Shown in pieces: positions 6,696-40,172 of a DNA stretch of 50,924 nt. The stretch spans positions 13,813-64,736 of the forward strand of contig CAVKFY010000029.1 of assembly GCA_963655775.1 (NCBI GenBank), in the 5' to 3' direction. Numbering within the stretch: the first letter of the stretch is position 1; each line of letters starts with the position of its first letter. The notes below the pieces were generated by a model. That model was not told the origin of the DNA. It saw only the letters and a program-made list of their open reading frames with translations, and searched no databases. The DNA comes from Alistipes communis (GTDB lineage: Bacteria > Bacillota_I > Bacilli_A > RFN20 > CAG-826). The position numbers were made by a program, and so were the translations under genes.

Positions 6696-6738
6696 TTAAA
6701 ACTCATTAATTAATTTAGCGTTAATTATACAAATGTAA

Positions 6739-6765
6739 TGAGGGGGAGGAAATCTCTCCCCCTCA
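6739..6765 (+). terminator. GC-rich stem-loop between the lipoprotein gene and the ABC genes (partial terminator or stabiliser)
   Basis: TGAGGGGGAG-gaaatct-CTCCCCCTCA: perfect 10-bp stem, 7-nt loop. Followed by cTTTGGAGG (the RBS of the next gene) rather than a long U-run. Confidence 0.4.
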
Positions 6766-6781
6766 CTTTGGAGGATTCAAT

Positions 6782-10051: not shown

Positions 10052-10054
10052 ATT

Positions 10055-12316: not shown

Positions 12317-14421
12317 ATGATTCTTTGATTGTCCATGAATTTAATCGTTCAAGTAGAATCGAAGAAGGAAATCGTTTTCTTATCGGTAACGGTCACCTTG
12401 GGTATCGTGGGCTACTAGAGGAAGAAAACAAAGCTTCCATGAAAGGATTCAATCTTGTTGGAGTCTATGATCGTTATCAAGACAAATGGAGAGAATCTCT
12501 TAATCTTCCAGATCCAATCCTTTTTAGAACGTTTGTGGATGATAAAGAAGAAACCGTTAATTCAACTGATCCGATAAAACATGAATTAGCATTAATCATT
12601 GAAGAAGGGTTATTGAGAAGAAAAAGTGAATTTCCTTCTTATTACGTCGAAAGTGAGCGTTTCCTTTCCAAAAAGCAAGACAATCTTCTTGCTGCAAAAA
12701 TAGAAATAAAAGCGAAAGAATCTAAGAAATATCATTTTGTCTTTGGCCTCGATTTAGATATTTACGAAATCAATGGTCCTCATTTCAAAGAAAAGAAGAT
12801 CACAAAAGAAGATGGTTTCCTTTTATTCGAAGGAAAGACAAATGAAAATAAAACGATCTTTGAAACGGTGAATTATTCTTTCAATAAAGGCAATGCAGCA
12901 TTTAATGAAGGTTTCTATGAAATAGATGCTTTCTTAAACAAAGACGAATCTTTCCAATTGGTTATTTATTCGCTGGTGTTTGAAGAAAAAACTGATTTTA
13001 AAAAAGAAATCAACGAAGTAATAAAAGATGGATACTTAGCCAAAAAAGAAGAACATGTTAAAGTGTTTTCATCTTTATATCATCAAGCAAAAGTTGAATT
13101 AATCGGTGATAAAGATGGAGAAAAAGAACTTTCATATTCAATATATGAACTATTGATTTTGGGTGATGAAAATAGAGAACGCAGTATTCCTGCGCGTGGA
13201 GTTTCAGGACAAACTTATAAAGGAGCGATTTTTTGGGATACCGAAATATTCTTGCTGCCGTTTTTTGCCTTAAATGAGCCAAAGGTTGCTCGTAACTTGA
13301 TTATGTATCGTGTAAATACTTTACCAGGAGCAAAAGCTAAAGCGAAAGAATTTGGCTATGAAGGAGCCTTCTACTCTTGGGAAAGTCAAGAAAGTGGTCT
13401 TGAAGCATGCTCAAAATACAATGTCACAGATTACAAAACTGGTAAACCAATTAGAACTTATTTCAATGAAAAACAGATCCATATAAGTGCGGATATTCCA
13501 TATGCGATAGAAAAATACCTAACTATTACGGGGGATAATTCTATTTTTCGTGATGGAGCACTAAATGTTTTATGCCAATGTTCATTGTTCTTTTTAAGTT
13601 ATGCAAAGAAAAGAGAAGGTGGTCTTTATCATATCGATGATGTCATTGGTCCAGATGAATATCACGAAAGAGTGAATGATAATGCATTTACAAATTACAT
13701 GGTCGCACATGCTTTACGTTTTACAATCAAGACATTAAAAAACAATATGCATCTAATAGAAGAATCCGATGAAGTCCTCTCTAAATTAGAAGACTTCTTA
13801 GCAAATCTTTATCTACCTAAGCCAAATAAAAATGGGGTTATAGAACAATTCGAGGGATATTTCCAAAAAGAAGATTGCTCTTTAGAAACGGTTAAATCTC
13901 GTTTAAAAGATCCAAGACAATATTGGGGAGGAAAAGATGGACCTGCATCTGGAACACAAATAATCAAACAAGCAGATGTAGTGGCAATGCTTTCGCTCTT
14001 AGGTGATGAATTCCCTCTATCAATAAAAGAAACAAATTATAATTATTACTTCCCCCGCACAGAGCACGGCTCAAGCTTATCTAGCAGCATGTATTCATTG
14101 CTTGCTACCGAAATAGGAGAAAAAGAATACGCCTATTCGATGTTCAGGAAAAGTGCATCGATCGATCTATACGGCCCTCAAAAGTTATATGCCGGAGGAA
14201 TCTATATTGGTGGAACTCATCCAGCGAGTGCAGGAGGGGCATATCTTTCTGCTATATATGGATTTTCAGGTTTGAAAATATCAGATAATGGCGAAATATC
14301 TTGTTCTAATCAATTACCAAAAGAAATTTCTTCTTTGACCTACAAAATCAAGGTAAGAAATAAACTATATAGTATTCATATCAGCCAAAAAGAAAATAAA
14401 GTGGAGGAAATAAAACAATGA
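12313..14421 (+). CDS. GH65 glycoside phosphorylase family, divergent paralogue 2
   Basis: 702 aa. GQTYKGAIFWDTE, GPDEYHERVNDNAFTN, EHGSSLSSSMY. The ATGA overlap with the upstream gene indicates translational coupling. Confidence 0.8.
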   Translation: MNDSLIVHEFNRSSRIEEGNRFLIGNGHLGYRGLLEEENKASMKGFNLVGVYDRYQDKWRESLNLPDPILFRTFVDDKEETVNSTDPIKHELALIIEEGLLRRKSEFPSYYVESERFLSKKQDNLLAAKIEIKAKESKKYHFVFGLDLDIYEINGPHFKEKKITKEDGFLLFEGKTNENKTIFETVNYSFNKGNAAFNEGFYEIDAFLNKDESFQLVIYSLVFEEKTDFKKEINEVIKDGYLAKKEEHVKVFSSLYHQAKVELIGDKDGEKELSYSIYELLILGDENRERSIPARGVSGQTYKGAIFWDTEIFLLPFFALNEPKVARNLIMYRVNTLPGAKAKAKEFGYEGAFYSWESQESGLEACSKYNVTDYKTGKPIRTYFNEKQIHISADIPYAIEKYLTITGDNSIFRDGALNVLCQCSLFFLSYAKKREGGLYHIDDVIGPDEYHERVNDNAFTNYMVAHALRFTIKTLKNNMHLIEESDEVLSKLEDFLANLYLPKPNKNGVIEQFEGYFQKEDCSLETVKSRLKDPRQYWGGKDGPASGTQIIKQADVVAMLSLLGDEFPLSIKETNYNYYFPRTEHGSSLSSSMYSLLATEIGEKEYAYSMFRKSASIDLYGPQKLYAGGIYIGGTHPASAGGAYLSAIYGFSGLKISDNGEISCSNQLPKEISSLTYKIKVRNKLYSIHISQKENKVEEIKQ

Positions 14422-16202
14422 TTAAAGGATTGATCTTCGATTTAGATGGAGTGATTATCTCCACGGACAAATTTCATTATGCCGCTTGGAAAAAGATGGC
14501 CGATCAAGAAAACATTCCTTTTGATGAAAAGGTGAACAATCGTTTACGTGGGGTTTCTAGAATGGCATCTTTAGAAATCATTTTAGAGAAGGCCGCCAAA
14601 GAATACTCAAAAGAAGAAAAAGAAACTCTTTGTGAAAGGAAAAATGAGATATATCGTGAATCCTTGAATTCATTAACACCAAACGATTTAGATAAAGACG
14701 TTTTGTCTACATTAAATTCTTTAAGACAAAAAGGCATTAAACTCGCTTTAGGAAGTGGCAGTAAGAACGCCCCATTTATTCTTGAAAGAATTGGATTAGC
14801 TAATTTCTTCGATGAAGTAGTTGATGGAAGCATGATAACTCATTCAAAACCTGATCCAGAAGTTTTCCTTTTAGCTGCTAAAAAAATTGGGTTAGATCCA
14901 AGTGAATGTGGAGTTGTTGAAGATGCTAAAGCAGGCGTTGAAGCTGCTAAGAAAGGTGGTTTCACCTCTTTTGGGATATGTGATGCCTATGATAGCGAGT
15001 TCACGGATCATCCCTTAAATAAATTTTCTGATCTTTTAAAATATTTTACTAATGAACCACGTTTAAGAATTCAATCAATTTACAAGACATATCCAAACGG
15101 AGTAACGGCCGTAAAGGATTTCAATCTTGATATATATGATGAGGAATTTGTCGTTTTTGTCGGACCATCCGGTTGCGGGAAAAGCACGGTTCTTAGGATG
15201 ATTGGGGGCTTAGAAGACGTCACTGAAGGATCTATTTATCTTGATGGAAAAGATGTCACAGATGAAGAAGCTAAGAATCGTAATATAGCAATGGTTTTCC
15301 AAAATTACGCTTTGTATCCTCATTTAACCGTTTTTAAAAACATTGCTTTCCCTCTCGAAGTGGAAAAAATACCTTTCAAACATTTCTTTGATTTCAAATA
15401 TCGTAAGCAAAGAAAAGAAGAAATCAAAAAGAAAGTCGAGGCAGCTGCAGAGAAGATTGGTTTAAGCGATTATCTCGACAGAAAGCCTGCTAACTTATCT
15501 GGTGGCCAAAGACAGAGAGTTGCTTTAGGAAGAGCAATTGTTCGTGATCCAGAAGTCTTCTTACTAGATGAGCCTCTTTCTAATCTTGATGCAAAGATGC
15601 GTGTTGCGATGCGAAGCGAGATAACCCGTCTTCATGACAAATTAAAAACAATCTTCATTTATGTTACCCACGACCAAGTTGAAGCAATGACGATGGGCAG
15701 CAAAATCGTTGTTTTGAAAGATGGAATAATTCAACAAATAGGCACACCAGAAGATATTTTCTTAAACCCTAAGAATCAATTTGTCGCTGGCTTTATTGGA
15801 ACTCCTCAAATGAATTTCTTTGATGCCAAAGTAAGTAAGAAAGATGATAGATATTTTATTTCTTTCTTAGGCAAAGAAGAAATGGAACTTCCAAAAGAAA
15901 GAATGAAGAATTTCAATGAAAGTTATTTAGATAAAGCAATCACCATGGGTATTCGTCCTAAAGCGATATCTGTCAATGGCGATTTACGTTACGAAGAACA
16001 AAACTTCAAAGCAAAGATCAATCTTTTTGAGCAATTAGGTGAGGAAACTTTAGTGTATGCCTCGATCGCTGGCAAAGAGGACGATCTAATCATTTCAACC
16101 GAAGGATTAGGACGATTCAAAAAAGCTGAGGAAATAAGCGTTTCATTCCGTTTGGACAATGTGTGTTTCTTCTCTAAGGAAAATGGCAAATCATTGCTTT
16201 AG
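14418..16202 (+). CDS. Fusion protein: beta-phosphoglucomutase (HAD) N-domain plus MsmK/MalK/UgpC-type sugar ABC ATPase
   Basis: Residues 1-~210 carry beta-PGM motifs (FDLDGVI, GSGSKNA, VEDAKAGVEAAKKGG). From ~215: Walker A GPSGCGKST, signature LSGGQRQRVALGRA, Walker B FLLDEPLSNLD, and a MalK-like C-terminal regulatory domain. No stop or restart at the junction (~15048-15062). Confidence 0.85.
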   Translation: MIKGLIFDLDGVIISTDKFHYAAWKKMADQENIPFDEKVNNRLRGVSRMASLEIILEKAAKEYSKEEKETLCERKNEIYRESLNSLTPNDLDKDVLSTLNSLRQKGIKLALGSGSKNAPFILERIGLANFFDEVVDGSMITHSKPDPEVFLLAAKKIGLDPSECGVVEDAKAGVEAAKKGGFTSFGICDAYDSEFTDHPLNKFSDLLKYFTNEPRLRIQSIYKTYPNGVTAVKDFNLDIYDEEFVVFVGPSGCGKSTVLRMIGGLEDVTEGSIYLDGKDVTDEEAKNRNIAMVFQNYALYPHLTVFKNIAFPLEVEKIPFKHFFDFKYRKQRKEEIKKKVEAAAEKIGLSDYLDRKPANLSGGQRQRVALGRAIVRDPEVFLLDEPLSNLDAKMRVAMRSEITRLHDKLKTIFIYVTHDQVEAMTMGSKIVVLKDGIIQQIGTPEDIFLNPKNQFVAGFIGTPQMNFFDAKVSKKDDRYFISFLGKEEMELPKERMKNFNESYLDKAITMGIRPKAISVNGDLRYEEQNFKAKINLFEQLGEETLVYASIAGKEDDLIISTEGLGRFKKAEEISVSFRLDNVCFFSKENGKSLL

Positions 16203-20280: not shown

Positions 20281-21783
20281 ATGGCAGAAGAAAAAACTAC
20301 TGGGGTGGAGAACCAACGTTCTTACATTTCTCAAACATCAGGTCTACAAGGAAAAGACTACATCGGCTATGCGTTAGGAGATTTCGCTGGATGCCTTTGC
20401 TTTTCTACAGTAACAACAATCCTACAAAAATATTACACAGACATTTTGGGATTAACCCCATTATTCATCATGATCATGTTTATCCTCGCCCGTGTGTGGG
20501 ATGCGATAAACGATCCTATCATGGGACGTATTGTTGATATTCGTCGTCCAGGAAAGGATGGACGTTACCGTGTATGGATGAAGTGGGTTGCAATACCTCT
20601 TGCCATCGCCACAGTCTTAATGTTCTTGCCATGGCCAGATCTTGCTAACAAGATGGGACAAGTTGGCATTTCTATTTATGCGGCTGTTACCTATGTTCTC
20701 TTTGGTATGATCTATACCGTTCACCAAATTCCTTACGGATCGCTTGCTTCAGTCGTTACAACAGATGCAAAAGAAAGAAACAAATTATCAGTCTTCCGTT
20801 CTGCTGGTGCAGCCTTAGGCTCAATTCCTGTTCTTATCATTACATTATTCTATTCAAAGAAAGTTACCGATGCAGATGGCAATACCGTTAGCAAGGTTCA
20901 ATATCTTCCTATCATTATTGGTGTAACTGTTATGGCTGTTGCCGCTTGTATCTTGCTCTTTGTCGCTTACAAGAACAACAAAGAAAGAGTTGTTGCCACA
21001 AACGTTGAACACAAGAAAGGCGAAACAGTTACGATTGCAAAAACATTATTAAAGAATCGTAGCTTTGTTGCAGTTTGCCTTACTGGTCTTCTTCTCTTAG
21101 CAGGGCAAATGTTCACCCAATCCTTCTATACATACTTATTTAACGATTTATTCGGAGCAAACTGGATGAACCTTGCTTCACAAGCTTGCTCTTATGGACC
21201 AATGGTCATCTTAATGCTCTTTGCTGGTAAATTAGTTCGTAAATACGGGAAGAAAGAATTATGTGCTTTAGGTGGCATTGTCGCGGCCGTTCCTAACTTC
21301 ATCTTAATCTTTCTTAAGGATGCTATCATCCAATTCCCGGTTATCTTCCTTGTTTTCTGCTTAATTAGCGGTATTGGACTTTCTATCATCACTCTAGAAA
21401 TTTGGGCTCTTGCAACAGATGCAATCGATGACGTTGAAGTTAAGACTGGTGTCCGTAATGATGGCTCCGCATATTCCATCTTCATGTTCTTCCGTAAACT
21501 TGGACAAGTTCTTGCTGCTGTTTGTGTTAACGGCGCTCTTATGGGAATGGGATATATCCCTGGCTCAGACGCTGTTCAATCACAAAGCACACTTGTTGCA
21601 GAATACTATATGGCCACCGCAATTCCAGCCGCACTCTTCCTTGGAATGGGCTTAGTATTATTCTTCCTCTATGGTTTAAATAAGAAAAAGACAGAAGAAC
21701 TACAAGTCGAAAAAGAAGCGTTGCTTGCCAAACAAGTTGCCAATAACGAAATCAGCATTGGTGCAGACCAAAGTGCAAACTAA
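20281..21783 (+). CDS. Glycoside-pentoside-hexuronide (GPH):cation symporter family transporter (YihO/MelB-like)
   Basis: 500 aa, about 12 TM segments. GPH signature region WDAINDPIMGRIVDIRR. Confidence 0.8.
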   Translation: MAEEKTTGVENQRSYISQTSGLQGKDYIGYALGDFAGCLCFSTVTTILQKYYTDILGLTPLFIMIMFILARVWDAINDPIMGRIVDIRRPGKDGRYRVWMKWVAIPLAIATVLMFLPWPDLANKMGQVGISIYAAVTYVLFGMIYTVHQIPYGSLASVVTTDAKERNKLSVFRSAGAALGSIPVLIITLFYSKKVTDADGNTVSKVQYLPIIIGVTVMAVAACILLFVAYKNNKERVVATNVEHKKGETVTIAKTLLKNRSFVAVCLTGLLLLAGQMFTQSFYTYLFNDLFGANWMNLASQACSYGPMVILMLFAGKLVRKYGKKELCALGGIVAAVPNFILIFLKDAIIQFPVIFLVFCLISGIGLSIITLEIWALATDAIDDVEVKTGVRNDGSAYSIFMFFRKLGQVLAAVCVNGALMGMGYIPGSDAVQSQSTLVAEYYMATAIPAALFLGMGLVLFFLYGLNKKKTEELQVEKEALLAKQVANNEISIGADQSAN

Positions 21784-21784
21784 A

Positions 21785-23104
21785 ATGGTATCGATTAATT
21801 CATCATTAGGACTTATTAAAGGCGTAGAAGAGGAGAACTCCTATGCCTTTTTGGGCATTCCATATGCCAAAGCAGAAAGGTTTTCCTATGCCAAAGAAAT
21901 AGATAATCTTGGCGAAAGTTTTGATGCAACACATTTTGGAGATGCCTGTATTCAAAAAAGATGTTGGTATGCTCACCTGGAGGTTCCTGAGAGGATGTTT
22001 TATCACAAGGAATTTAGACAAGGGCTTGAATTCAAATATTCTGAAGATTGTTTGAATTTAAATATCTATACGCCAAAAGAAAAAGGCAAATATCCAGTTA
22101 TAGTTTTTATTCATGGCGGAGGATTTGATTCTGGGGCGAATTCTGAGAGCGCTTTCGATGGAGATGCTTTAGCAAAAAGAGGAATTGTCACTGTCTTTAT
22201 CCAGTATCGTGTTGGAGTTTTTGGCTATTTCACTCACGAAGATTTAACAAAAGAATTTGGTCATGAAGGCAATTTTGGCTTTGATGATCAAATAACATCT
22301 CTAAAATGGGTTAAGAAACATATAAGTGATTTTAATGGCGATCCAGATAATGTGACAATTATGGGACAAAGTGCTGGTGCAATGTCCATTCAATGTATCT
22401 TGCTTTCAAAGAAATGTGATGGCTTATATAACAAAGCAATCATGATGTCTGGGGGAGGAAAATTCCCATCAATGGCTACACCAAAACCAGTAGAAGAAAG
22501 AAGAGAATATTGGCTTGATGTCATGAAAGAATGTGGTTGTTCATCACTAGATGAATTCAAAAAACTTGATGCAAAGAAAATTTTCGACGCGTTAGAAATA
22601 GTTAAGCCAAGAAGAAAAGACAACCAAATATCCACAATGACAATGGTTGATCATTATTACTTAGAAAAATCACAAGAAGAATTGTTTGAAAAGAAACTAA
22701 ATGTTCCTACAATAATTGGTTTTACTAATAACGATATGTACACGTTAATTCTTGCTATCATGGCTCTTTCTTATGCAAAGAAGAATAACGCATATTGTTA
22801 TTATTTCGATGTAGATGCAAAAGGAGACAACAACAAAGCCTTCCATTCTTCTGATCTCCGCTACGTTTTTGGAACATTAAAAGAATCATGGAGACCATAT
22901 GATAAGAAAGATGAAGAGATTTCTGAATCGATGATGGATTACATTGCAAACTTTGCAAAAACTTCAAATCCAAATGGCAATAATCTTCCTGTTTGGGAGA
23001 AAAAGAATGGAGAGGCTCTCCATATCTCTTCAAAAGGAATTAAAATGGGTCGTCCAAATAAATGGAAACTATTTAAAAATACGTTCCTAGGAGACCCTAA
23101 ATGA
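21785..23104 (+). CDS. Type-B carboxylesterase (para-nitrobenzyl esterase-like), cytoplasmic
   Basis: Start re-set to the ATG at 21785, 1 nt after the transporter stop. FLGIPYA, oxyanion hole IHGGGF, nucleophile elbow GQSAGA. No signal peptide. Confidence 0.85.
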   Translation: MVSINSSLGLIKGVEEENSYAFLGIPYAKAERFSYAKEIDNLGESFDATHFGDACIQKRCWYAHLEVPERMFYHKEFRQGLEFKYSEDCLNLNIYTPKEKGKYPVIVFIHGGGFDSGANSESAFDGDALAKRGIVTVFIQYRVGVFGYFTHEDLTKEFGHEGNFGFDDQITSLKWVKKHISDFNGDPDNVTIMGQSAGAMSIQCILLSKKCDGLYNKAIMMSGGGKFPSMATPKPVEERREYWLDVMKECGCSSLDEFKKLDAKKIFDALEIVKPRRKDNQISTMTMVDHYYLEKSQEELFEKKLNVPTIIGFTNNDMYTLILAIMALSYAKKNNAYCYYFDVDAKGDNNKAFHSSDLRYVFGTLKESWRPYDKKDEEISESMMDYIANFAKTSNPNGNNLPVWEKKNGEALHISSKGIKMGRPNKWKLFKNTFLGDPK

Positions 23105-25293
23105 AATACCAACATCGATTCATCCTTAAAGAAAAAACACCAACAAGCAGGCTTTATTATTCTGATGGCAAATACGTCCAGTTAGATTTCTTTAAGCATA
23201 TCCTCCGTGTCGCAGTATATGAAAATAAAGATAATCTTTTTCCTACCTTTTCCATTTGTCCAGGTACATCCTCAATGCCTAAAAAAGGAAGAGACCGTCT
23301 TTCAAATGAAGGATTAGAAGAAATAAAAGAAGAAAAAGATAACGAATTTGTAATTGATGATGTAAGAATCACTCTCGATTTAGATAACTTTGCTCTTCAT
23401 TACTTCAAAGATAATAAGAAATTCTTTTCTGATAGAGAAATTATTGCTTACAACCTCGAAGGAGAAATGGGCAAAGGAAGTTACCATTACTTATCTAGAG
23501 AAAAGGATGAACATATTTATGGTTTAGGAGACAAGACTGGACCAGTAAATAAGAATCTATGTTCTTTTAAATTAGAGACATTTGATGCGTTAGGATTCAA
23601 TGCAAATAAGAGCGACCCTCTTTATAAACAAATCCCTTTCTATATTTGCAAGAATTCCGTTGGAAGCTATGGCATTTTCTATGATACATATTCGAATGGA
23701 GAAATAAATTTTGGTCGCGAACATAACAATTACTATGAACCATACAAATATTGTCATTCTGAAGAAGAATCACTTGTTTATTATGTCATCTTTGGAGATG
23801 TTGAAGAGATTATAGAAAGATTCACCTATCTTACTGGCAAATCGTTCTTGCCTCCAAAATGGAGTTTTAAATATTGCGGTTCAACAATGGCTTATACCGA
23901 TTCTCCTAATCCAATAAAATCGTTTGAAGAATTTAAAAACAAATGCAATGAGTATAACATCGATTGTGGTGGATTCTATTTATCTAGCGGCTACACCCAG
24001 ATAGGAGATAAACGTTGCGTTTTCCATTGGAATCGTGATAAATTTCCAAATCCTAAGGGTTTTGCCGATGATTTTTTGAAAATTGGAATTAATTTCTTGC
24101 CAAATATTAAACCTGCGTTTTTAACGACCCATCCTTTATATGATTACATTAAAGAACATGGTTGGTTTTTGCATTACAAAGATGGCTCTCCATATGTTTT
24201 CCCTTTCTGGGGTGGTATGGGAAGCTATCTAGATTTTACGAACGAAGAAGCATACGATTTCTGGAGCAAATGTGTTAAAGAAAATCTTGTTGACCTTGGC
24301 TATATGTCCATTTGGAATGATAACAATGAATATGACATCCATGATGAAGGAGTCTTAGCGAATGGCTTTGGCCATCCAATACAAGCCAAGCTTATTAGGC
24401 CCCTTTTTTCTCTTTTAATGATTGCTTCATCTAATGCGGCAGTAGACAAAACCAAACGCCATATGGCTGTCACTAGATCTGCAGCCGCAGGTTTTCAAAG
24501 AATCGCAGAAACCTGGACGGGAGATAACAATACCTCCTTTGAGGATTTCCGTGGTAACCACAAAATGGCTATGACATCTGCATTAACTGGCTTTACCTTT
24601 ATTGGACAAGACATAGGTGGGTTTGCTGGAGAAAAACCGAGTGAAGAATTGTTCCTACGTTGGATTGCATACGGAATTTTCACCCCAAGATTTACTCTAC
24701 ATTCATGGAATCCAGATGGCTCATCAACGATGCCTTGGTTATATCCAGAAGTTAAGGATAAAGTCGTAAATCTTTTTGAACTAAGAAAGACTCTTTTACC
24801 ATATCTCTATTCTGAAGCAATGAATGCAGTGGAAACCTACCATCCAATGATCTACCCTGTTTTCTTGAAATATCCTAACTATGATGAAGAGAGTGATCTT
24901 TTCTTCTGTGGAAATAATATTTTAAGTGCACCTATTTTCGATGAAGGAGCAAAAGAAGCAGCTGTAAATCTTCCAGACGGACATTGGTATCTAGGTGAAA
25001 AACGTGTTTCGGGAAAATTGAAAATTCAAAATAACCCTGGTGATTTGCCTGTGTTTTTCGTAAAAGAAGGATCTGTTATCCCTCTATTTAAAGAAAACAA
25101 GACAATCTTTAACATTTATCCATTAGAAAAGGGAGAATTCTCATATCGTTTTTATGAAGACGATTCTTCTTTAGAAAACCCATATCGCTTAATAAAAGTC
25201 ACCTGTAACGAAAAAGAAGTCATCGTTGAAGGAATTCCTAACGAAGAAATTAAGCTCGTTGATTTTAAAAATAGAACGCTTAAGGCCATATAA
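23101..25293 (+). CDS. GH31 alpha-glycosidase
   Basis: 730 aa. Nucleophile region SIWNDNNEY, acid/base region TWTGDNNTSF and GQDIGGF. ATGA overlap with the esterase gene. Confidence 0.85.
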   Translation: MKYQHRFILKEKTPTSRLYYSDGKYVQLDFFKHILRVAVYENKDNLFPTFSICPGTSSMPKKGRDRLSNEGLEEIKEEKDNEFVIDDVRITLDLDNFALHYFKDNKKFFSDREIIAYNLEGEMGKGSYHYLSREKDEHIYGLGDKTGPVNKNLCSFKLETFDALGFNANKSDPLYKQIPFYICKNSVGSYGIFYDTYSNGEINFGREHNNYYEPYKYCHSEEESLVYYVIFGDVEEIIERFTYLTGKSFLPPKWSFKYCGSTMAYTDSPNPIKSFEEFKNKCNEYNIDCGGFYLSSGYTQIGDKRCVFHWNRDKFPNPKGFADDFLKIGINFLPNIKPAFLTTHPLYDYIKEHGWFLHYKDGSPYVFPFWGGMGSYLDFTNEEAYDFWSKCVKENLVDLGYMSIWNDNNEYDIHDEGVLANGFGHPIQAKLIRPLFSLLMIASSNAAVDKTKRHMAVTRSAAAGFQRIAETWTGDNNTSFEDFRGNHKMAMTSALTGFTFIGQDIGGFAGEKPSEELFLRWIAYGIFTPRFTLHSWNPDGSSTMPWLYPEVKDKVVNLFELRKTLLPYLYSEAMNAVETYHPMIYPVFLKYPNYDEESDLFFCGNNILSAPIFDEGAKEAAVNLPDGHWYLGEKRVSGKLKIQNNPGDLPVFFVKEGSVIPLFKENKTIFNIYPLEKGEFSYRFYEDDSSLENPYRLIKVTCNEKEVIVEGIPNEEIKLVDFKNRTLKAI

Positions 25294-25327: not shown

Positions 25328-26302
25328 TTACTTGCTTTCGTTATATGTTTTTATGAACGCGCCTATACAGCTCTTTTTCTCGCTAAATGTCGCATAGTCT
25401 TCATATAGACAAATTTTTGTTAAGTCGAAGTTTTGTTCTATTGAACGTAACTCTTTTTCTAACTTACGAATTACTTCTTCTGAGGTTAAGAGTTCGCCAG
25501 AGAGGATAATACTTTGTAAGGAAAGAAGAGAGTTTGCATTACATAAGGCAAACGACAAAACATGGATCACTTTGTTTAACAACTCTTCGTTTGATGTAAT
25601 AAGCTTCGTTCCTTCTTTTTCTTCTAAATCTTTACCTAGAATTGCCGAATAAGAAATAGTATCTTCAACAGTTTTATCTTGGTAATATGTATGCCCTAAT
25701 TCTGAAGAATATCCTAAAGGTTTGCCATTAACGTATATTGATGATCCAACGCCAGGTCCATATTTAACGAGCAAGAAATTCTTCTCCTCTGGATGATTTT
25801 CCGCATAGATGTTTGCTAAGCAATTAACGTTGTTAATGATGTAATAGGGAAGATTCAAAGAAACGATATCTTCTAATAACTTTGGATAGCGTTCTTGCAT
25901 GCTTTCGATAGATGAATCTCCTCTTACCGTAACACCAATAGAAATAACGTGTTCAGGACATTCGTTAGAGAAATCTTTAAACGATATTCTTGAAGAGTCA
26001 TCTTGCTTAAGGATGTTGCCTGCGAAATCCATTTGATAAAAATATTCATGATGACGTCTGATATCAATTCCAAGGAAGGAACCATACTCCGCATTTAAAG
26101 AAAGGGTTAATTCCTTTCTTCCAACTTTTTGGGTATTTTCCTTTCTCTTTTCGGAGATCATTTTTTCTTCTAAAAGGGGCTTAAGAGCAAGCGTTAAAGC
26201 AGCATTGGTCAAAGATAGAGTGTTCGCTAAAATAGACCTAGAGCTTTCTTTCTCTACAAATAGAATACGAAGGATTGATTTTTGAGTCTCTGTTAAATTC
26301 AT
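25328..26302 (-). CDS. ROK-like transcriptional regulator (wHTH plus sugar-kinase-fold sensor), lacking the Cys-rich zinc motif
   Basis: Start re-set to MNLTETQKSILRIL... at 26302, 4 nt after the upstream stop. wHTH, then the ROK-like VKYGPGVGSSIYVNGKPLGYSSELGH. No CxCGxxGC after GH. Confidence 0.65.
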   Translation of the reverse strand: MNLTETQKSILRILFVEKESSRSILANTLSLTNAALTLALKPLLEEKMISEKRKENTQKVGRKELTLSLNAEYGSFLGIDIRRHHEYFYQMDFAGNILKQDDSSRISFKDFSNECPEHVISIGVTVRGDSSIESMQERYPKLLEDIVSLNLPYYIINNVNCLANIYAENHPEEKNFLLVKYGPGVGSSIYVNGKPLGYSSELGHTYYQDKTVEDTISYSAILGKDLEEKEGTKLITSNEELLNKVIHVLSFALCNANSLLSLQSIILSGELLTSEEVIRKLEKELRSIEQNFDLTKICLYEDYATFSEKKSCIGAFIKTYNESK

Positions 26303-26306
26303 ATTT

Positions 26307-27023
26307 TTATACCAATAGTGTAACACCAGAAATAAGGAGAAGAACACACGTTATCTTCATAAATAGATTCTTTGATAGCTTAGGAGCAATTAATGAACCA
26401 ATAATTAGGGAGATTACGGTTACTCCTGCGCCTATCCCAAATAAGATCCAAACATTTGAATTGAACATTCCTTCAACTACTTGAGTCGTAAACATCATTG
26501 AGTTAAGAATCACCCAAAGAAGAGATAATGTCGATCTGAATTTGTTCTTATCTTTCAATTCATGGAGACCATATATAACAACAAAAGGTCCACCAGAAAC
26601 AAAGAGTTTATGCATGATTCCTCCTAGGAAAAGGAAGATAATCATCAACCATTTAGGAAGATTTACTTTTTCAAAGTCAATAAAGAAGAAAGCAATGCTA
26701 ATAAGGATAATCAATGCAGCATAGACATATAGAATTATCTTATGGTTGATAGGAATTAATTCAACCGCATATCCTGTTCCAAAACCTGCGCCAACAGTAA
26801 TAAGAATAATCAAAAAATGTTTCCAATCGATATCTTTTATGTGGCGAATAACAATATAAACGCTAACGAAAAGAGCAACTAGATTTAGCACTGGTTTTGC
26901 AACATCTTCACCAACCAGTTTTAAAGATAAGGGCATTGCTAGAACCGTTCCAGCAAAGCCCGTTATCGTTTGGATGATATTGCTAATGAAAATTATGAGT
27001 ATAAATAGAACGTCTTCAACCAT
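26307..27023 (-). CDS. TauE/SafE-family (DUF81) anion exporter-like membrane protein
   Basis: 238 aa, 7-8 TM segments, two-fold internal architecture with G-rich TM motifs (ITGFAGTVLAMPL; GGIMHKLFVSGGP). Its start ATG overlaps the upstream stop (TAATG). Confidence 0.6.
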   Translation of the reverse strand: MVEDVLFILIIFISNIIQTITGFAGTVLAMPLSLKLVGEDVAKPVLNLVALFVSVYIVIRHIKDIDWKHFLIILITVGAGFGTGYAVELIPINHKIILYVYAALIILISIAFFFIDFEKVNLPKWLMIIFLFLGGIMHKLFVSGGPFVVIYGLHELKDKNKFRSTLSLLWVILNSMMFTTQVVEGMFNSNVWILFGIGAGVTVISLIIGSLIAPKLSKNLFMKITCVLLLISGVTLLV

Positions 27024-27643
27024 TAGAAATCAACTTTTGTGTTTTCTCCGACTATACCAACGTATGCACCAAGAGAGGCTTGGTTACTGTCTTTATGTGC
27101 TAACAACCATTTATTAACTTTCCAAAGCTTTTTATCCTTTGGAGCCTCTTCTAGATCCATGTTTGTTTCATCGCCAAGGACAATCACACATCTAAATCCA
27201 TCTTCACTAAGTTTGCATGGAGAGAAATGTAAGGTATATGGTCTTAAGATCACTGCTTGTCCTTTTTTGAGTAAGAAAGCCTTTAGATCTTTAGAATCAA
27301 GGATGCCGTCTTTGATGTCGGTTTGTAAGCCGAGTAGAAGAACTAAATCATCTCCAGCGATATCTACCTCAGGACAAGTGTGATATTCCATGCAATTCAA
27401 AAGAGAGTTGTAGCCATTGCAATATCCAACCTCGATATCAGCTAAACCATAAACGCTTTCTTTTATTTCTTTAACGCCAGCTAATTTTTCCATCTCTTCA
27501 TCCTTACGGACATAGAGGTTTTTGCCTTTTTCAGGCATTTTAGCCTTTGAACGGAGATAAGTAACGAGTTCTTCTGTTGGAATATCAATTAATTCGCCAT
27601 AAGGCAAGAATTCAGGATCAGTAACACTTATGAGTTTCATCAA
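27023..27643 (-). CDS. DUF4867-like small cupin-type protein (candidate sulfosugar isomerase/accessory protein)
   Basis: 206 aa soluble protein. Assignment is by recollection of the DUF4867 family and its co-occurrence in sulfo-TAL clusters. Overlaps the upstream gene by ~26 nt. Confidence 0.5.
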   Translation of the reverse strand: MMKLISVTDPEFLPYGELIDIPTEELVTYLRSKAKMPEKGKNLYVRKDEEMEKLAGVKEIKESVYGLADIEVGYCNGYNSLLNCMEYHTCPEVDIAGDDLVLLLGLQTDIKDGILDSKDLKAFLLKKGQAVILRPYTLHFSPCKLSEDGFRCVIVLGDETNMDLEEAPKDKKLWKVNKWLLAHKDSNQASLGAYVGIVGENTKVDF

Positions 27644-28949
27644 GAATCTCCCAATTCATTAATTTAGCTAGATAACGCATAGCTTTCTTATATTGGACGT
27701 AGCCCATAATAACGTGGTGAGCAACGCCAGTGTATGTAACCGTATCAACAACTTCATTGATTGGTCTATCAAAGACTACTTTCGCATATGTTCCAGATAA
27801 ATCCTTTGTCATTTCAAAGGCTTCGCCTTCTTCATAATAGATTCTTGTCTTTCCTCTTGCCGTATCAATACGTAAGATAGACATCTTTCCTGGCTTTAAG
27901 ACAAAGTCTGCGGTAACGCCTTTTCCACCAGCGAAATATGTTTCAAGCGAACGGTTGCAACGTCCATCCCAAAGGTTACATGGAGCAACTCCATCATGCC
28001 AAAGAAGAGCATAGTTTTCTTGATAGTTAACTTGAGAAAGATCGGCCATAAATGGTGTTTCTTCTCCTGCTGCACGGACTGCGACCATGCTTAATGCCGC
28101 TTCGATATCGCCTTCACAAGCAAGTAACATTCCTCTTGATTGAAGAACCGACATCATCGCACACGGTGAAACGCCATAGTTTTTAGCAAACTCTGGCCAA
28201 CAACGAATTGCTACGACATCAAGGCCTTTTTCTTTCATGAATTTAGAACAAACGACCACTAAACGGGAAACTTGTCTAACTTGATAATCATTAAGTTTCT
28301 TGCAATCGAAGGTTTCTCTAAGATTCTTTTCTTCAACATCAATTTCTTCTTCGCTTGCTTCTCCACCAAAGAAATCGCTTAATTCATAATGGCTAATAAG
28401 AATTCCAAGTTCTTTGTAGAGATGAAGCTCATCTACTCCAACGTTATAGAATCCTTGGGCATGGAAACCGATTAAACCAACGTTTGAGTTTTCTAATGCA
28501 ACCTTCATCTTGATTGCCTTGACCCAATCGTGATCAATGTCATCTCCAACATAAACGATATAGTCATCAACTCCGCCTTTATAGAGGTTTGAGGCGTTTA
28601 AATTAACCCCGCAAACTGCATTGAGTCTAATCTTTCCTCCATCGTATGGAAGTTCGTTATAACCTTGTAAAAGGAATGGGCGCTTGACAATATCGTGAAG
28701 AATTAAAGCAAGTCCACCTAAGTGGAAGGTAGCAGAGACTACAACGACCGCATCAACGTGTTTTTCGACGAAATATTCGCCTGCTTTCTTTGCTTCGGAA
28801 TGTTCGATAACCATTTCTGGGTAATAAACCCAATCAATGGAAGTATCTTCCATGACTTTCTTACATCTTTCTTGATAAAGCTTAAAGGCTGTTTCGTAGT
28901 CAAAAGTCTTTCTGACTAGGCAAACTAACCCAATAATTGGTTTTCTCAT
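27618..28949 (-). CDS. L-fucose/L-arabinose isomerase-like aldose-ketose isomerase family protein
   Basis: 443 aa with the FucI-like N-terminal Rossmann-like region (IGLVCLVRKTFD...AVVVVSATFHLGG) and a C-terminal barrel. Confidence 0.6.
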   Translation of the reverse strand: MRKPIIGLVCLVRKTFDYETAFKLYQERCKKVMEDTSIDWVYYPEMVIEHSEAKKAGEYFVEKHVDAVVVVSATFHLGGLALILHDIVKRPFLLQGYNELPYDGGKIRLNAVCGVNLNASNLYKGGVDDYIVYVGDDIDHDWVKAIKMKVALENSNVGLIGFHAQGFYNVGVDELHLYKELGILISHYELSDFFGGEASEEEIDVEEKNLRETFDCKKLNDYQVRQVSRLVVVCSKFMKEKGLDVVAIRCWPEFAKNYGVSPCAMMSVLQSRGMLLACEGDIEAALSMVAVRAAGEETPFMADLSQVNYQENYALLWHDGVAPCNLWDGRCNRSLETYFAGGKGVTADFVLKPGKMSILRIDTARGKTRIYYEEGEAFEMTKDLSGTYAKVVFDRPINEVVDTVTYTGVAHHVIMGYVQYKKAMRYLAKLMNWEILDETHKCY

Positions 28950-28950
28950 A

Positions 28951-29787
28951 TTATTTGACCTCGTTAACGATTTTATATGAAGCAGAGAAGTCTTCTTTAG
29001 CTAAGCCTTCTGCCATGGCTTTTTCGTATATGCCAACAACGCGTTCTAATGTTGGGCATTCTTTATTTACGTCTTTTGCCATTTCAAGAGCAAAATGAAC
29101 GTCTTTATTCATGTTTTCAACGGAGAATGCAGTTGGATAAGTATTGGAGATGATGTTCTTTGCCTTGGTATCAAGATAGAAACATTGTCCTCCGCCATAG
29201 CTTATAGCAGTAACGACTTCTTCTTGGTTTAAGCCTACTTCTTTTGCTAAGCCAAGAATTTCATTAACGCCATTTTGGATTTCACCAACCAAGGCGTTAT
29301 GAATAACTTTCATCTTTAATCCTGCGCCATGATCACCCATATAGATGATGTTCTTACCCATGCATTCAAGGATTGGCTTTACTTTTTCATAGACTTCTTT
29401 ATTACCGCCTACGTAAATGCCAAGTTCTCCCTTAACGGCTGCTGGTTGAGATTTAACAACCGGACAGTCAAGGATTTCAACTCCGCTTCCTTCTAATTCT
29501 TTTGCAACTTTTTGATTTGTTGCGGGGAAAATAGTGGACATATCAATCCAGATTTGTCCTGGGCGGAAGTATTTCTTTAATTCGGCAAAGAGCGAAAGCA
29601 TATGCTCATTCTTTGGAACCATGGAAATAATAACATCAGCGAATTTAGCACATTCTTCATAGGAAGAAGCAAATGGGAAAGACGTGTCTTTTTTGAAAAT
29701 ATCGTAGCCAATTAAGTCGTACTTTTTGGCAACGTTTGTAGCCATTGGCATTCCCATGATGCCAAGACCAATAAAGGCGACTTTCAT
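28951..29787 (-). CDS. Beta-hydroxyacid dehydrogenase family reductase, YihU (sulfolactaldehyde reductase)-like
   Basis: Start re-set to MKVAFIGLGIMG (NAD-binding GxGxxG). Catalytic Lys region GAGLKMKVIHN. Substrate loop DCPVVKSQ aligns with E. coli YihU DVPVGRTS. Confidence 0.8.
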   Translation of the reverse strand: MKVAFIGLGIMGMPMATNVAKKYDLIGYDIFKKDTSFPFASSYEECAKFADVIISMVPKNEHMLSLFAELKKYFRPGQIWIDMSTIFPATNQKVAKELEGSGVEILDCPVVKSQPAAVKGELGIYVGGNKEVYEKVKPILECMGKNIIYMGDHGAGLKMKVIHNALVGEIQNGVNEILGLAKEVGLNQEEVVTAISYGGGQCFYLDTKAKNIISNTYPTAFSVENMNKDVHFALEMAKDVNKECPTLERVVGIYEKAMAEGLAKEDFSASYKIVNEVK

Positions 29788-29788
29788 C

Positions 29789-30469
29789 TTAGTTTCCTTT
29801 CGTATGATCCCAAGCATCTTGGAACACGCCTAAGCCATAAGTGGTAAATGGATGATTGAAACTATCTTCGTAGACGGCTAATCCTGCTGTGACAATATCT
29901 GCACCAAGTTCTGCTGCATCAGCAATTTGTTTACCATTTCTAACGGCTGCGACAATGATTTCAGTCTTATAGCCTTTTTCTTTATAGATGGCAACAAGTT
30001 GAGACATATATGGATATGTGTCTTCGCCGTTATTTTCTTTCCAACCGACGAATGGTGAGACGAATTTAGCGCCAATTCTTCCTGCTTGGATGGCTTGGGA
30101 AGGAGAGAAGACAAGAGTAACGTTAGTTCTTACTCCTTCTTTTTCTAATTGATATGCGGCTTTGACACCTTCTGTCGTGCAAGGAATTTTAATGACAAAG
30201 TTTGGAGATAATTTAGCAATCTTCTTTGCTTCGGTAATCATTTCTTCTGCGGTTGCTAAATGTGGATTGATTTCGACGGAGACTGGGAATTTATCCATTC
30301 CTTCGAGATCGTTTTCTTTTAACCAATTGGCAATATCTGTGATTGCAACTAAGAATGGCTTTCCTGAGGCCATGATATGTTTTGGGTTTGTTGTAACACC
30401 GTCGATTTTGTAGTTTTTGTAAGCGAAGTCGATTTCGTTTAATTTTGCTGAATCAAGAAAATATTTCAT
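29789..30469 (-). CDS. Short-type transaldolase / fructose-6-phosphate aldolase family (candidate 6-deoxy-6-sulfofructose transaldolase)
   Basis: 226 aa. MKYFLDSA, GVTTNP, Schiff-base Lys in FVIKIP, NVTLVFS, SPFVGW. Strong RBS AGGAGG. Confidence 0.85.
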   Translation of the reverse strand: MKYFLDSAKLNEIDFAYKNYKIDGVTTNPKHIMASGKPFLVAITDIANWLKENDLEGMDKFPVSVEINPHLATAEEMITEAKKIAKLSPNFVIKIPCTTEGVKAAYQLEKEGVRTNVTLVFSPSQAIQAGRIGAKFVSPFVGWKENNGEDTYPYMSQLVAIYKEKGYKTEIIVAAVRNGKQIADAAELGADIVTAGLAVYEDSFNHPFTTYGLGVFQDAWDHTKGN

Positions 30470-30470
30470 T

Positions 30471-32450
30471 TTAATTTCCTCCTTTTTCTTGTTTTAAGCT
30501 TGCGAATAAATCTTTGAATTTAGAATCCTTTTTATAGAAGGCAATAGGTAAGCCGACAGGTGAATCTATTTCTCCTTCTCCAGAAGGTATTTCTTTGTTT
30601 GTGAAGAATTGAATCCATTCCCCTTTTGGTAAATAGTAATGATGTTTTGTTTCATTTGGTCTAATGACTGGTGAAACAAGAATGTCCTCGCCAAATAGGT
30701 ATTCCTTTTTGTTTGTATATGCTTCCTTTTCATCGTAATGGAAGAATAGTGGTCTAATCATTGGAGTGTTGTTTTTGTAATATTCTTCATAGAGATGTTT
30801 ACGATATGGGGCGAGATCTACATAGGATTTTGTGTTTTTTACAAATTCATCATATGTATTTGGATCATCATATTGGACATTATTTTTTGGTTGGTTTCCT
30901 TCGTGAGTACGATAGACTGGGCTAAAGATATTCATCTCTGACCAACGATTAAACAATTCTGCGTTTCTCTTCATTGGATATAGAGCAGTGATTGTTGTAT
31001 ATCCTCCAATATCCGAATGGATGACACCTGCGCCAGAACATGCTAAAGATAGGCATGCTGGGATAACACTTCCAAGACCATATTCATCTGAGAAGTCGAC
31101 GTGTTGGTCGCCATTCCACATTGAGTGAGTGAATTGGAAAGTATGACCATAAGCAGCACGGGAGAAGAAGAAACATTCATCAAGTTTTCCTTCTTCGACA
31201 ACTGCATCATAATTACATTTTGCCCACATTGTAGGCCAACGATTATGAAGCTTCTCGCTTTCTCCACCATAACATACTGAGTCTGTTGGGAGATACTCAC
31301 CAAAGTCTGCCATCCAACCAGAAAGACCATATTCAATCATGTTCTTTTTGATAATTTCCATATACCAGTTACGAGCGGTTGGATTTGTTAAATCAACGAT
31401 GCCTGCATTAAATGTTGTTGATTTAATGTGATAGACTGAACCATCTTTATGACGGATAAGGAAGCCTTTCTTCTTTGCTTCGTTATACATTGGCGCATCT
31501 TCTTTTAAGAAGGTGTTGATGTATCCTAGGAAACGGACTCCTTCGGAATTTAGCTGTTTGATAATTTCTTTAAGATTTGGGTAAAGTTTTTCATCTGCTT
31601 CCCAATTCCAGTAAACTTGATAACCGAAACTCGTGACGACATTTCCGCACCAGTCTTGGCACCAAATACCAGCAACCTTTAAGCCTTTCTTTTTTGCTTC
31701 TTCGTATTTTTTAAGAAGAACTTCACTTCCACCCTGTACAGCAAGAATGACACCATCATTCACCCAGGAAGGAACTCTTGGTTGGAGACCTACAAGTTTA
31801 GAAATATCTTGTGACAACTCTAAGAGAGAATCTGCACAAAGCAACGATATTGATTGAGGAATTTGTCTGAATTTAATAAGCAATTCATCTTTCTTGAACG
31901 ATAAGAATCCATATGTATCTTCATGACAATAGAAAGCGTATCCTTTCGAAGACATGAAAGATGGAGTGGAGCAATAAGTTTGATGATCTTTATACGGCGC
32001 TTCATAATCTGGGTTTGCACCATGGAGACGTTCTCTTAATTGCTTCTTAACAATCTTCATGACTTGTTGGTGTTCGCTTACCCAAATTGGAACGTCTTTT
32101 CCTTTTAAATCAAGGGTTGAGTATTGCTCACCACATCCATATATATATTCATCAGGGAATGTTTTGAAACGCAATGTAAAACGGTTATATCCAGGATCAA
32201 CGTGGAAATGGAATTTAATCCATGGATCCTTATCGACGATTATTTCCGCTTGAACTTTTCCATCGGAGAAAATATAACGGTTGCCATCTTGGAAAGAGAA
32301 AGTAAGTTTTCTTCTATCAAAGATATTGTCTCTTGTTTTAAAAGAGCCTCTCTTCATTTTGTATTTCGCTTTTCCTTTGCCGATAGTTAAATAACACTCG
32401 CCGTTTGTTAATTGGTTTAAAAAGTAATTATAAAGGTCTTCTTTTTTCAT
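30471..32450 (-). CDS. GH31 glycosidase of the YihQ (sulfoquinovosidase) subfamily, non-canonical sulfonate pocket
   Basis: 659 aa, collinear with E. coli YihQ: AVQGG, CQDW, SFGYQVYWNW, nucleophile GWMADFGEYLPTD, acid/base MWNGDQHVDF, HSDIGGYTT, RTHEGN. Confidence 0.85.
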   Translation of the reverse strand: MKKEDLYNYFLNQLTNGECYLTIGKGKAKYKMKRGSFKTRDNIFDRRKLTFSFQDGNRYIFSDGKVQAEIIVDKDPWIKFHFHVDPGYNRFTLRFKTFPDEYIYGCGEQYSTLDLKGKDVPIWVSEHQQVMKIVKKQLRERLHGANPDYEAPYKDHQTYCSTPSFMSSKGYAFYCHEDTYGFLSFKKDELLIKFRQIPQSISLLCADSLLELSQDISKLVGLQPRVPSWVNDGVILAVQGGSEVLLKKYEEAKKKGLKVAGIWCQDWCGNVVTSFGYQVYWNWEADEKLYPNLKEIIKQLNSEGVRFLGYINTFLKEDAPMYNEAKKKGFLIRHKDGSVYHIKSTTFNAGIVDLTNPTARNWYMEIIKKNMIEYGLSGWMADFGEYLPTDSVCYGGESEKLHNRWPTMWAKCNYDAVVEEGKLDECFFFSRAAYGHTFQFTHSMWNGDQHVDFSDEYGLGSVIPACLSLACSGAGVIHSDIGGYTTITALYPMKRNAELFNRWSEMNIFSPVYRTHEGNQPKNNVQYDDPNTYDEFVKNTKSYVDLAPYRKHLYEEYYKNNTPMIRPLFFHYDEKEAYTNKKEYLFGEDILVSPVIRPNETKHHYYLPKGEWIQFFTNKEIPSGEGEIDSPVGLPIAFYKKDSKFKDLFASLKQEKGGN

Positions 32451-38831: not shown

Positions 38832-40172
38832 ATGCGTTCTACATTCTTTTTGGATCGAATAAATAAACCTGAAACTGCCAAAGCGCAGATTTATTACGCT
38901 TGCATATGCTTGTTTGAAGGCATGGTTATTTCCTTTCTTACGATCTTCTTAAATGAATGCCGTAAACAACTGTGTTGGAATTCTACGATGTCTTCGTTTA
39001 GTTTGTTTCTTCCTTCTTTTGGCGCAGCTATTGGCATATTTATTTGTTCATTCTTTGTCTCTCATCAAAAACAAAATCTAAAAATCATGAGAATTCTCCT
39101 TATAATTTCTTTCTTTAGCATTGTTTTGATGTCATTGCTTGGGATATTTATGCCAAATGGGCTTGATTCTAAGGGCAATATTATAAATTCAGGCCAGTTT
39201 TACGCTTTATTTTTTGTTTTCTTGATTTTTCCAGCCATATTGATGGGCTTACATTGGGCGTTTCTTTCTTACCATGCTTCATGTGCGGCAGATATTACAT
39301 TTGCAGAGAAAAGTAGATACGGACATATATGTTTATATGGAACATTGGTTCCTGCTCTAGCATCACCCTTAGCAGGTTATATCGCAGAATGTTATTTGAC
39401 TGGTTACAAAGGATATCTGTTTCTGTTTTTAGTCGCTTCGCCTTTGCTATTTCTTCTTTTTGGATTCACCTTTATTTTTAAGCCATTCCCATCCTCTTTG
39501 TACCATTCAGATTCGGATGAACATGTACCAACAAAGCTTTTGTTCAAGAATAGAACTTACGTGTTTTATTTATTCCTAGCATCTTTATGGATTCCACTTA
39601 TTTGGGCTAGCGATTCTTTATCTTCAAGTCTGTGGTCATCTTATGAATCTAGCTCTTCGGTGATGAATTCGTTTAATTCGCTCACTTGGGGTATTTATTT
39701 AGGAGTTTCCTATATTTTTGAGTTCACGATTATTTTTATCAACACTCATTTTGGCATCGGAAAAAAGATACGTTTTTCCCTTAGCTTGGCTTTGATTTTT
39801 ATCTTTCTAGAAACCTTAGGCTTAGGATTGCTTGCTTATTATTTTGTTGGCGAAGATTCAACAAGCATTGCCTTGGTTGTCGGAATAATTCTCATACATT
39901 CATTAAAAGGTATGGCTAGCGGTCTTTATGTGACAAGCAACCTTTTGATTCTTAATCATATTCTTGGACCTAAACTTAGAAGAAAGGCTGTTTTTATTGC
40001 TCCATTGATATTTCAATTAGTAAACTCAGTCCTACAGCTTATATATCCTTATTTATATGAAAAAATATATTTAGCGTTCTTTATTATTGCAACGTTGGCG
40101 TTTATAGGTTTGATATTGTCTACTTTCCTAGATGTTCATTTTCTTCATCATCCTGAAGAAATAGAAGACTAG
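38832..40172 (+). CDS. Polytopic membrane protein, MFS-like; function unknown
   Basis: 446 aa with about 12 hydrophobic segments. No obvious RBS at the listed start, so the start is uncertain. Confidence 0.5.
   Translation: MRSTFFLDRINKPETAKAQIYYACICLFEGMVISFLTIFLNECRKQLCWNSTMSSFSLFLPSFGAAIGIFICSFFVSHQKQNLKIMRILLIISFFSIVLMSLLGIFMPNGLDSKGNIINSGQFYALFFVFLIFPAILMGLHWAFLSYHASCAADITFAEKSRYGHICLYGTLVPALASPLAGYIAECYLTGYKGYLFLFLVASPLLFLLFGFTFIFKPFPSSLYHSDSDEHVPTKLLFKNRTYVFYLFLASLWIPLIWASDSLSSSLWSSYESSSSVMNSFNSLTWGIYLGVSYIFEFTIIFINTHFGIGKKIRFSLSLALIFIFLETLGLGLLAYYFVGEDSTSIALVVGIILIHSLKGMASGLYVTSNLLILNHILGPKLRRKAVFIAPLIFQLVNSVLQLIYPYLYEKIYLAFFIIATLAFIGLILSTFLDVHFLHHPEEIED

Follow-up and report, generated by a model that had tools for sequence, protein, structure and literature searches.

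A GH31 glycosidase of the YihQ lineage with glutamine in place of the sulfonate-binding arginine: a candidate arginine-independent sulfoquinovosidase class

Glutamine in a YihQ-lineage active site

A 50,924-nucleotide stretch of DNA (GenBank assembly GCA_963655775.1, contig CAVKFY010000029.1, positions 13,813 to 64,736 of the forward strand, filed under Alistipes communis; hereafter the window, whose own numbering is used throughout) carries on its minus strand a gene, 30471-32450, for a 659-residue glycosidase of family GH31. The open reading frame (ORF) is complete and belongs to an operon whose neighboring genes overlap. When its product was compared with all PDB sequences by HMMER, the best match was Escherichia coli YihQ (E = 1e-156), followed by BmSQase of Bacillus megaterium (8R56, 2e-152), SftG of Eubacterium rectale (6PNR, 1e-151), and SmoI/AtSQase of Agrobacterium tumefaciens (5OHS/5OHY, 1e-133). 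These four are solved sulfoquinovosidases (SQases), to which the window protein is 36-41% identical; the first GH31 match after them drops to 1e-36. With 695 bits the protein clears the cut-off of the NCBIfam model PRK10426 (553), Pfam GH31 domains are found in it, and an AlphaFold2 (AF2) model shares the fold of the solved SQases.

Published papers name Arg301-Trp304-Tyr508(H2O), in YihQ numbering, as the sulfonate pocket of SQases, and regard every member of the orthologous group as an SQase. The window protein departs from this signature at its first residue. Plus-strand TTG at 31617-31619 reads CAA on the coding strand and specifies Gln278, within the tetrapeptide Q278-V279-Y280-W281 (31608-31619). 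The window motif TSFGYQVYWNW lies ungapped in the HMMER alignments on TSFGKRVMWNW of YihQ, TSFGKRLMWNW of BmSQase, TSFGKRLQWDW of SftG, and TSFGARLFWDW of SmoI/AtSQase, and two MAFFT alignments concur in assigning Gln278 to the column of Arg301 in YihQ and Arg283 in SmoI. An earlier interpretation made from the letters alone (the sequence-only reading) had placed a glutamine here, and all three alignments bear it out. It had also proposed aligning the protein with characterized SQases; no nearby arginine can slide into the position, as YihQ Lys300 is replaced by Tyr277 and Arg294 by Val271. The sulfonate-binding arginine that marks the GH31_13/YihQ SQases is thus absent from this protein. Among its best 120 homologues, drawn from a collection of 5.8 billion proteins and reaching down to 46% identity, all 120 carry glutamine in the motif FG-x-Q-V-[YFNH]-WNW, which rules out chance or sequencing error.

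The remainder of the catalytic center is conserved. The residue equivalences to YihQ proposed in the sequence-only reading hold throughout, at an offset of 23 and then 24: the nucleophile is Asp382 (31305-31307; D405), the acid/base is Asp448 (31107-31109; D472), and the hydroxyl-recognition pair Q262/Q288 (or K/E) is present as Gln239 and Gln265. Trp281 (31608-31610) and Tyr484 (30999-31001) retain Trp304 and Tyr508, and His516 corresponds to His537. In SmoI, Glu135 and Arg438 bind the glyceryl aglycone of 2'R-sulfoquinovosyl glycerol (SQGro), and Arg438 has been linked to stereo-selectivity (PMC8795539). Both are invariant among the Gln-type relatives described below, as Glu126 (with His127 at 32070-32075) and Arg431 (31158-31160) in the window, so that the aglycone site looks unchanged. 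That the glutamine is an alignment artefact, or the protein an inactive relic, is accordingly very improbable: beyond the absent arginine nothing speaks for it, and against it stand three concordant alignments with an ungapped motif, intact catalytic aspartates, a complete gene with overlapping operon neighbors, and a large clade in which the motif is invariant down to 46% identity. The AF2 model (pLDDT 87.9) superimposes on PDB entry 5OHT with a TM score of 0.90; its confidence is lowest in the stretches by which the two classes differ and in the Tyr484 loop (483-494, pLDDT <50). This loop is three residues longer than that of YihQ (487-489, ITA; residues 484-489 at 30984-31001), the window sequence GGYTTITALYPMKR aligning with YihQ GGYTT---LFEMKR.

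The sequence-only reading had treated the glutamine as a peculiarity of one protein; instead it is the signature of a monophyletic clade that is widespread among gut, rumen, and Acholeplasmatales genomes. In an alignment of 115 sequences, the class with Gln at YihQ position 301 and His at both 153 and 474, termed Q-HH, accounts for 78 and coincides exactly with one clade of a neighbor-joining tree (71% bootstrap), sister to the Arg-type enzymes. The change at 301 does not occur in isolation. At position 153, the validated Arg-type enzymes carry Gln or Pro and Gln-type enzymes His (window His127, directly adjoining the active-site residue Glu126). At 367-369, Phe-Gly-Glu of the Arg type is matched by [Ser/Ile]-Thr-Thr in the Gln type (window Ser344-Thr345-Thr346, 31413-31421). 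At 474, Asn or Ser of the Arg type gives way to His (window His450, 31101-31103), two residues past the acid/base and invariant in the Gln clade. Thr346 occupies the column coupled most tightly to 301: the normalized mutual information between 369 and 301 is 1.00, Arg going with Glu, Gly, or Gln, and Gln with Thr or Ser. Positions 367, 146, 366, 158, 368, 474, and 153 follow in strength of coupling. Because 301 covaries with 369, 367, 368, 474, and 153, the pocket appears remodeled rather than decayed. The loop of the N-domain that bears the aglycone-binding Glu (YihQ 146-183) also differs throughout between the classes.

The window protein falls in a sub-clade of 26 sequences (100% bootstrap) that has Lys316, lacks Arg294, and mostly has Tyr457. 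Clade-specific basic residues, Lys316, Lys136, and Arg195, were considered as substitutes for the arginine, and no general replacement was identified among them; Lys316 does not qualify because it is confined to this sub-clade and absent from the Gln-type enzymes of Lachnospiraceae. A small number of GH31 proteins, spirochaetal or more distant, including those of loci L084 (a metagenome-assembled genome, MAG, of Treponemataceae), L072, and L089, form a separate set, termed Q-other. They have Gln301 and the Thr-Thr pair, whereas position 474 is Leu or Met and position 153 is Gln; such a protein is the sole GH31 of the sulfo-transketolase (sulfo-TK) locus L084. A search of cluster representatives returned only distant matches (best 47% identity), and there Arg and Gln toggle in remoter GH31 proteins too.

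A sulfo-transaldolase operon and its relatives

The GH31 gene heads a minus-strand operon. Next to it lies an orthologue of sulfofructose transaldolase (SF-TAL; SftT/SqvA) at 29789-30469, followed by a reductase that NCBIfam, Pfam, and PDB matches assign to the HIBADH family and that is presumed to act on sulfolactaldehyde (SLA), at 28951-29817. Then come a fucose-isomerase-like "type 2" relative of the sulfoquinovose (SQ) isomerase SftI/SqvD at 27618-28949; a DUF4867 protein (SftX/SqvB; Pfam PF16161, E = 7e-64; PDB 9GYY, 2e-40) at 27023-27643; a TauE/SafE-family exporter (PF01925), presumed to export 2,3-dihydroxypropane-1-sulfonate (DHPS), at 26307-27023; and, closing the operon, a ROK-family/winged-helix regulator (NCBIfam, Pfam) at 25328-26347. 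Converging on the operon from the plus strand are a GPH/MFS_2 glycoside symporter (20281-21783; NCBIfam, Pfam, and related loci), a type-B carboxylesterase (21725-23104; Pfam) that has no evident signal peptide and is predicted to be cytoplasmic, and a second, unrelated GH31 protein.

The transaldolase is 64% identical to the validated B. megaterium SF-TAL (BmSF-TAL; PDB 8BC2-4). It matches this enzyme at E = 6e-91, whereas the second-best transaldolase reaches 6.5e-44. BmSF-TAL is 55-68% identical to every transaldolase (TAL) that adjoins a Gln-type GH31 gene, about the identity those transaldolases share with one another. The SQase of B. megaterium itself (8R56) is Arg-type, so that either GH31 class serves this one pathway, BmSF-TAL being partnered by the Arg type and its window orthologue by the Gln type.

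With each GTDB species represented by one genome, a scan gave 80 loci with 88 YihQ-like proteins, a set biased towards relatives of the query, so that its Arg and Gln counts are not a global frequency. The sequence-only reading had suggested surveying how many sequences carry Gln at this position and in what neighborhoods, and the outcome, beyond the 78 Q-HH sequences of the alignment, is that most lie in sulfo-transaldolase (sulfo-TAL) loci. Of 69 Q-HH genes, 47 stand beside SF-TAL and seven beside sulfo-TK, and none was seen beside sulfo-EMP (the sulfo-Embden-Meyerhof-Parnas route); the 16 Arg-type genes are distributed as three beside sulfo-TK and 10 beside sulfo-EMP, with none seen beside SF-TAL. 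The Gln type occurs in Lachnospiraceae (Butyrivibrio, Pseudobutyrivibrio, Roseburia, Acetatifactor), Oscillospiraceae/Acutalibacteraceae, Erysipelotrichaceae, Treponema, and Acholeplasmatales, and the Arg type in Enterobacteria, Clostridium frigoris, and some spirochaetes. Cultured strains with a Gln-type orthologue include Pseudobutyrivibrio ruminis DSM 9787 (locus L058) and Butyrivibrio sp. MB2005 (L048). In most related loci a symporter of the GPH family abuts the Gln-type gene. Members from Acholeplasmatales and related taxa adjoin a split transketolase, RpiB, an acylating aldehyde dehydrogenase that NCBIfam matches best to the acylating sulfoacetaldehyde dehydrogenase SauS (515 bits), and an ADP-forming CoA ligase of two subunits resembling SqwKL. 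The gene set is that of the sulfoacetate-forming sulfo-TK variant which, according to secondary citations, was characterized in an Acholeplasma sp. by means of the recombinant enzymes SqwD and SqwKL. Each GH31 class is found with either isomerase type and also in transketolase contexts, a free mixing of modules that is to be expected if both deliver SQ.

The loci nearest to the window (L012-L017, L022, and L060; 80-87% identity) have the same operon. Their bins are named Alistipes, Parabacteroides, Bacteroidales, Roseburia, and Lachnospiraceae, labels that look unreliable, as the window has 36% GC and the next relatives are MAGs of "Bacilli bacterium".

Elsewhere in the window, the second GH31 protein (23101-25293, plus strand) is of the general alpha-glucosidase type (best PDB matches 6JR6 and 2G3M), 24% identical to YihQ and outside its clade. 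The sequence-only reading held that it lacks the sulfonate pocket as well; Phe residues opposite both Trp304 and Tyr508 agree with this, but BLAST sets an arginine (GDKRCVFHW) opposite Arg301. A 594-residue protein at 14418-16202 (plus strand) is an unusual fusion of a HAD/beta-phosphoglucomutase-like domain with a MalK-type ABC ATPase (ABC_tran and OB_MalK), preceded by two GH65 phosphorylases (10055-12316 and 12313-14421) and two ABC permeases. Three long ORFs, 4101-6695 (864 residues), 6782-8194 (470 residues), and 38832-40172 (446 residues), have no Pfam match; the second, which precedes two ABC permeases, may be a divergent solute-binding protein.

Sulfonate recognition and substrate

By lineage the window enzyme belongs to YihQ/GH31_13, and it lacks one defining feature of the published signature; it is probably SQase-like, which is not the same as a confirmed SQase. 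The reading we favor, at a probability of roughly 65%, is that it is a genuine SQase with an arginine-free Gln/Thr/His pocket, and that the Gln clade as a whole probably binds sulfonate without arginine. GH31_13 would on this account possess a second, arginine-independent mode of sulfonate recognition, and the class that uses it may be the prevailing "yihQ" type among Acholeplasmatales and among Firmicutes of the rumen and gut, a broader proposition to which we lend slightly less credence. Of the two explanations put forward in the sequence-only reading, a different manner of sulfonate recognition is favored because of the SF-TAL orthologue, the DUF4867, TauE, and SauS-/SqwKL-like neighbors, and the coordinated gain of Thr, Thr, and His; the other, a differently 6-substituted alpha-glucoside, is disfavored by the same context. 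The R-W-Y triad, taken there as the definition of SQases, describes the enzymes characterized so far and does not extend beyond them.

Mechanistically, the enzyme would act as a retaining alpha-glycosidase that hydrolyzes SQGro, an SQ glycoside being the substrate we infer, and releases SQ into the adjacent sulfo-transaldolase pathway, where isomerase, SF-TAL, and reductase would act in turn before TauE exports DHPS. In canonical enzymes Arg301 and Glu369 presumably form a salt-bridged unit. In the Gln type this pair would be replaced by Gln278 and the hydroxyls of Thr345 and Thr346, with two clade-specific histidines added, His450 by the acid/base and His127 by the aglycone-binding Glu126. 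The sulfonate would accordingly be held by neutral or histidine hydrogen-bond donors, together with Trp281 and Tyr484, and not by a salt bridge.

Several observations weigh against this proposal. The four solved and assayed SQases are all Arg-type, and neither the PDB nor the literature searched yielded a Gln-clade member with an assay. The placement of Gln278, Thr345/Thr346, His450, and His127 along the C6 pocket is deduced from covariation and from neighboring residues whose role is known. Retention of Trp281 and Tyr484 is weak evidence for sulfonate, since more distant GH31 relatives keep Trp304 and Tyr508 too. Two enzymes of the operon are divergent as well: the isomerase scores 177 bits on the SftI model, whose cut-off is 700 and on which "type 1" isomerases, about 24% identical to it, reach 384-411; and the reductase is only 28% identical to E. 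coli YihU, with the sulfonate-pocket residues N174/S178 replaced by H173/V177. Finally, one operon of a Lachnospiraceae MAG (locus L040) encodes both an Arg-type and a Gln-type homologue (5845-7854 and 10031-12055 of that locus), which suggests that the two classes are not fully redundant.

The lost arginine and these divergent partners could be accommodated if the substrate were a non-sulfonated, 6-modified alpha-glucoside, whether 6-deoxy, uronic, or neutral, and the neighboring enzymes processed the analogue by the same chemistry. Besides lacking N174/S178, the reductase scores higher on tartronate-semialdehyde and HIBADH models than on the SLA-reductase model, and DUF4867 proteins are known from non-sulfo ketose clusters too. 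This explanation nonetheless seems improbable. A validated SF-TAL is as close to the window transaldolase as the clade's transaldolases are to one another, the presence of a TauE-family exporter implies an anion that is a dead end, and sister loci encode the SauS-like sulfoacetaldehyde dehydrogenase. The same divergent "type 2" isomerase accompanies canonical Arg-type SQases in two spirochaete sulfo-TK loci (L069 and L075). Moreover, the substituted pocket residues are polar hydrogen-bond donors, not the hydrophobic lining of a 6-deoxy pocket. As to the reductase, SLA reductases of Firmicutes may, judging from these substitutions, also bind sulfonate differently from YihU.

The co-occurrence in L040 may bear instead on which SQ glycoside is cleaved. 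There an ABC importer precedes, in order, the Arg-type GH31, SftI, TauE, the Gln-type GH31, and MFS_2, the Gln-type gene overlapping MFS_2. The Gln clade might be a specialized paralogue acting on a lyso- or otherwise acylated sulfolipid, another aglycone or stereoisomer, or intact sulfoquinovosyl diacylglycerol (SQDG). The near-constant pairing of Gln-type genes with a GPH symporter and the class-specific N-domain loop around the aglycone-binding Glu are in keeping with this, as are the genes for cytoplasmic carboxylesterases or lipases that flank the Gln-type GH31 both in the window and in locus L001. In the latter, MFS_2, carboxylesterase, Gln-type GH31, TAL, reductase, isomerase, DUF4867, TauE, a lipase-like hydrolase, and a further MFS_2 follow one another on one strand, an order in keeping with a sulfolipid fragment being taken up and de-acylated. 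We nevertheless regard a different SQ glycoside as unlikely, though less so than a non-sulfonated substrate. The Gln clade keeps, without exception, both residues with which SmoI binds the glyceryl aglycone, most loci have no GH31 besides the Gln-type enzyme, and the Arg-type YihQ of E. coli is paired with GPH transporters too. An arginine-free SQase acting on SQGro remains our preferred reading.

Implications and comparison with known systems

Within the sulfur cycle the turnover of SQ is a major branch, and in guts it is one way in which H2S arises; YihQ serves as its marker gene, with the R-W-Y triad as the signature. Should the Gln class prove active on SQ glycosides, this signature needs revising, the prevalence of the pathway as estimated from motifs may be too low, and structural work gains a new sulfonate-binding design to examine. 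Should it not, a large share of environmental "yihQ" has been mis-assigned. Were arginine-independent recognition true and the class predominant, motif-based surveys would have missed it, or homology-based ones would have annotated it without biochemical basis. In a stronger version, the two classes would differ in the range of sulfolipid-derived glycosides they accept, which would explain operons that keep both.

A human-gut study screened GH31 proteins with a motif drawn from the Speciale signature residues and reported the pathway in only 23 of 4,930 species bins. In amplicons from the rumen, another study placed the majority of yihQ variants on the long branch of a YihQ from Acholeplasmatales (Mariniplasma). 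Acholeplasmatales homologues in the 115-sequence sample are Gln-type. Public databases label members of the clade "sulfoquinovosidase" (IMG) or "alpha-glucosidase" (NCBI), and in the full-text literature searched, outside which fall Speciale 2016 and Abayakoon 2018, no GH31 SQase of a Gln type is described.

A GH31 enzyme that cleaves SQGro without the canonical motif has a precedent in Alteromonas SqgH, a member of a distinct GH31 clade that hydrolyzes SQGro in the absence of the Q/E-RWY motif (Ma et al., 2025; PMC12780224). SqgH, however, is not a member of the YihQ clade, and the prediction for it is another Arg/Lys-containing set, R302, T377, K412, and F513, whereas the window enzyme lies within the YihQ lineage, and no substitute arginine was identified in it. 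Two arginine-free sulfonate pockets are known from the same metabolism, albeit in folds unrelated to GH31. The SQGro-binding protein SmoF uses the hydroxyl of Thr220, a pair of backbone NH groups, and a water molecule positioned by His13 and Gln46, while the SLA reductase YihU uses Asn174, Ser178, and one backbone NH. These are residue types also found in the Gln clade, and the likeness is confined to chemistry.

The nearest known systems remain the Arg-type SQases YihQ, BmSQase, SftG, and SmoI. With these the window enzyme shares the fold (TM 0.90), the nucleophile and acid/base, the Q262/Q288 pair, Trp304, Tyr508, His537, the glyceryl-aglycone Glu and Arg, and a sulfoglycolysis-type operon. 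It differs from them in the replacement of Arg301 by Gln, Lys300 by Tyr, Arg294 by Val, Phe367-Gly368-Glu369 by Ser-Thr-Thr, and both Asn474 and Gln153 by His, as well as in the N-domain loop 146-183 and the longer loop after Tyr508. Priestia megaterium and E. rectale have sulfo-TAL (SFT) operons that, like that of the window, combine transaldolase, DUF4867 protein, isomerase (putative in the window), reductase (likewise putative there), exporter, and GH31, but where theirs are equipped with an Arg-type SQase, the window operon pairs the Gln type with a "type 2" isomerase.

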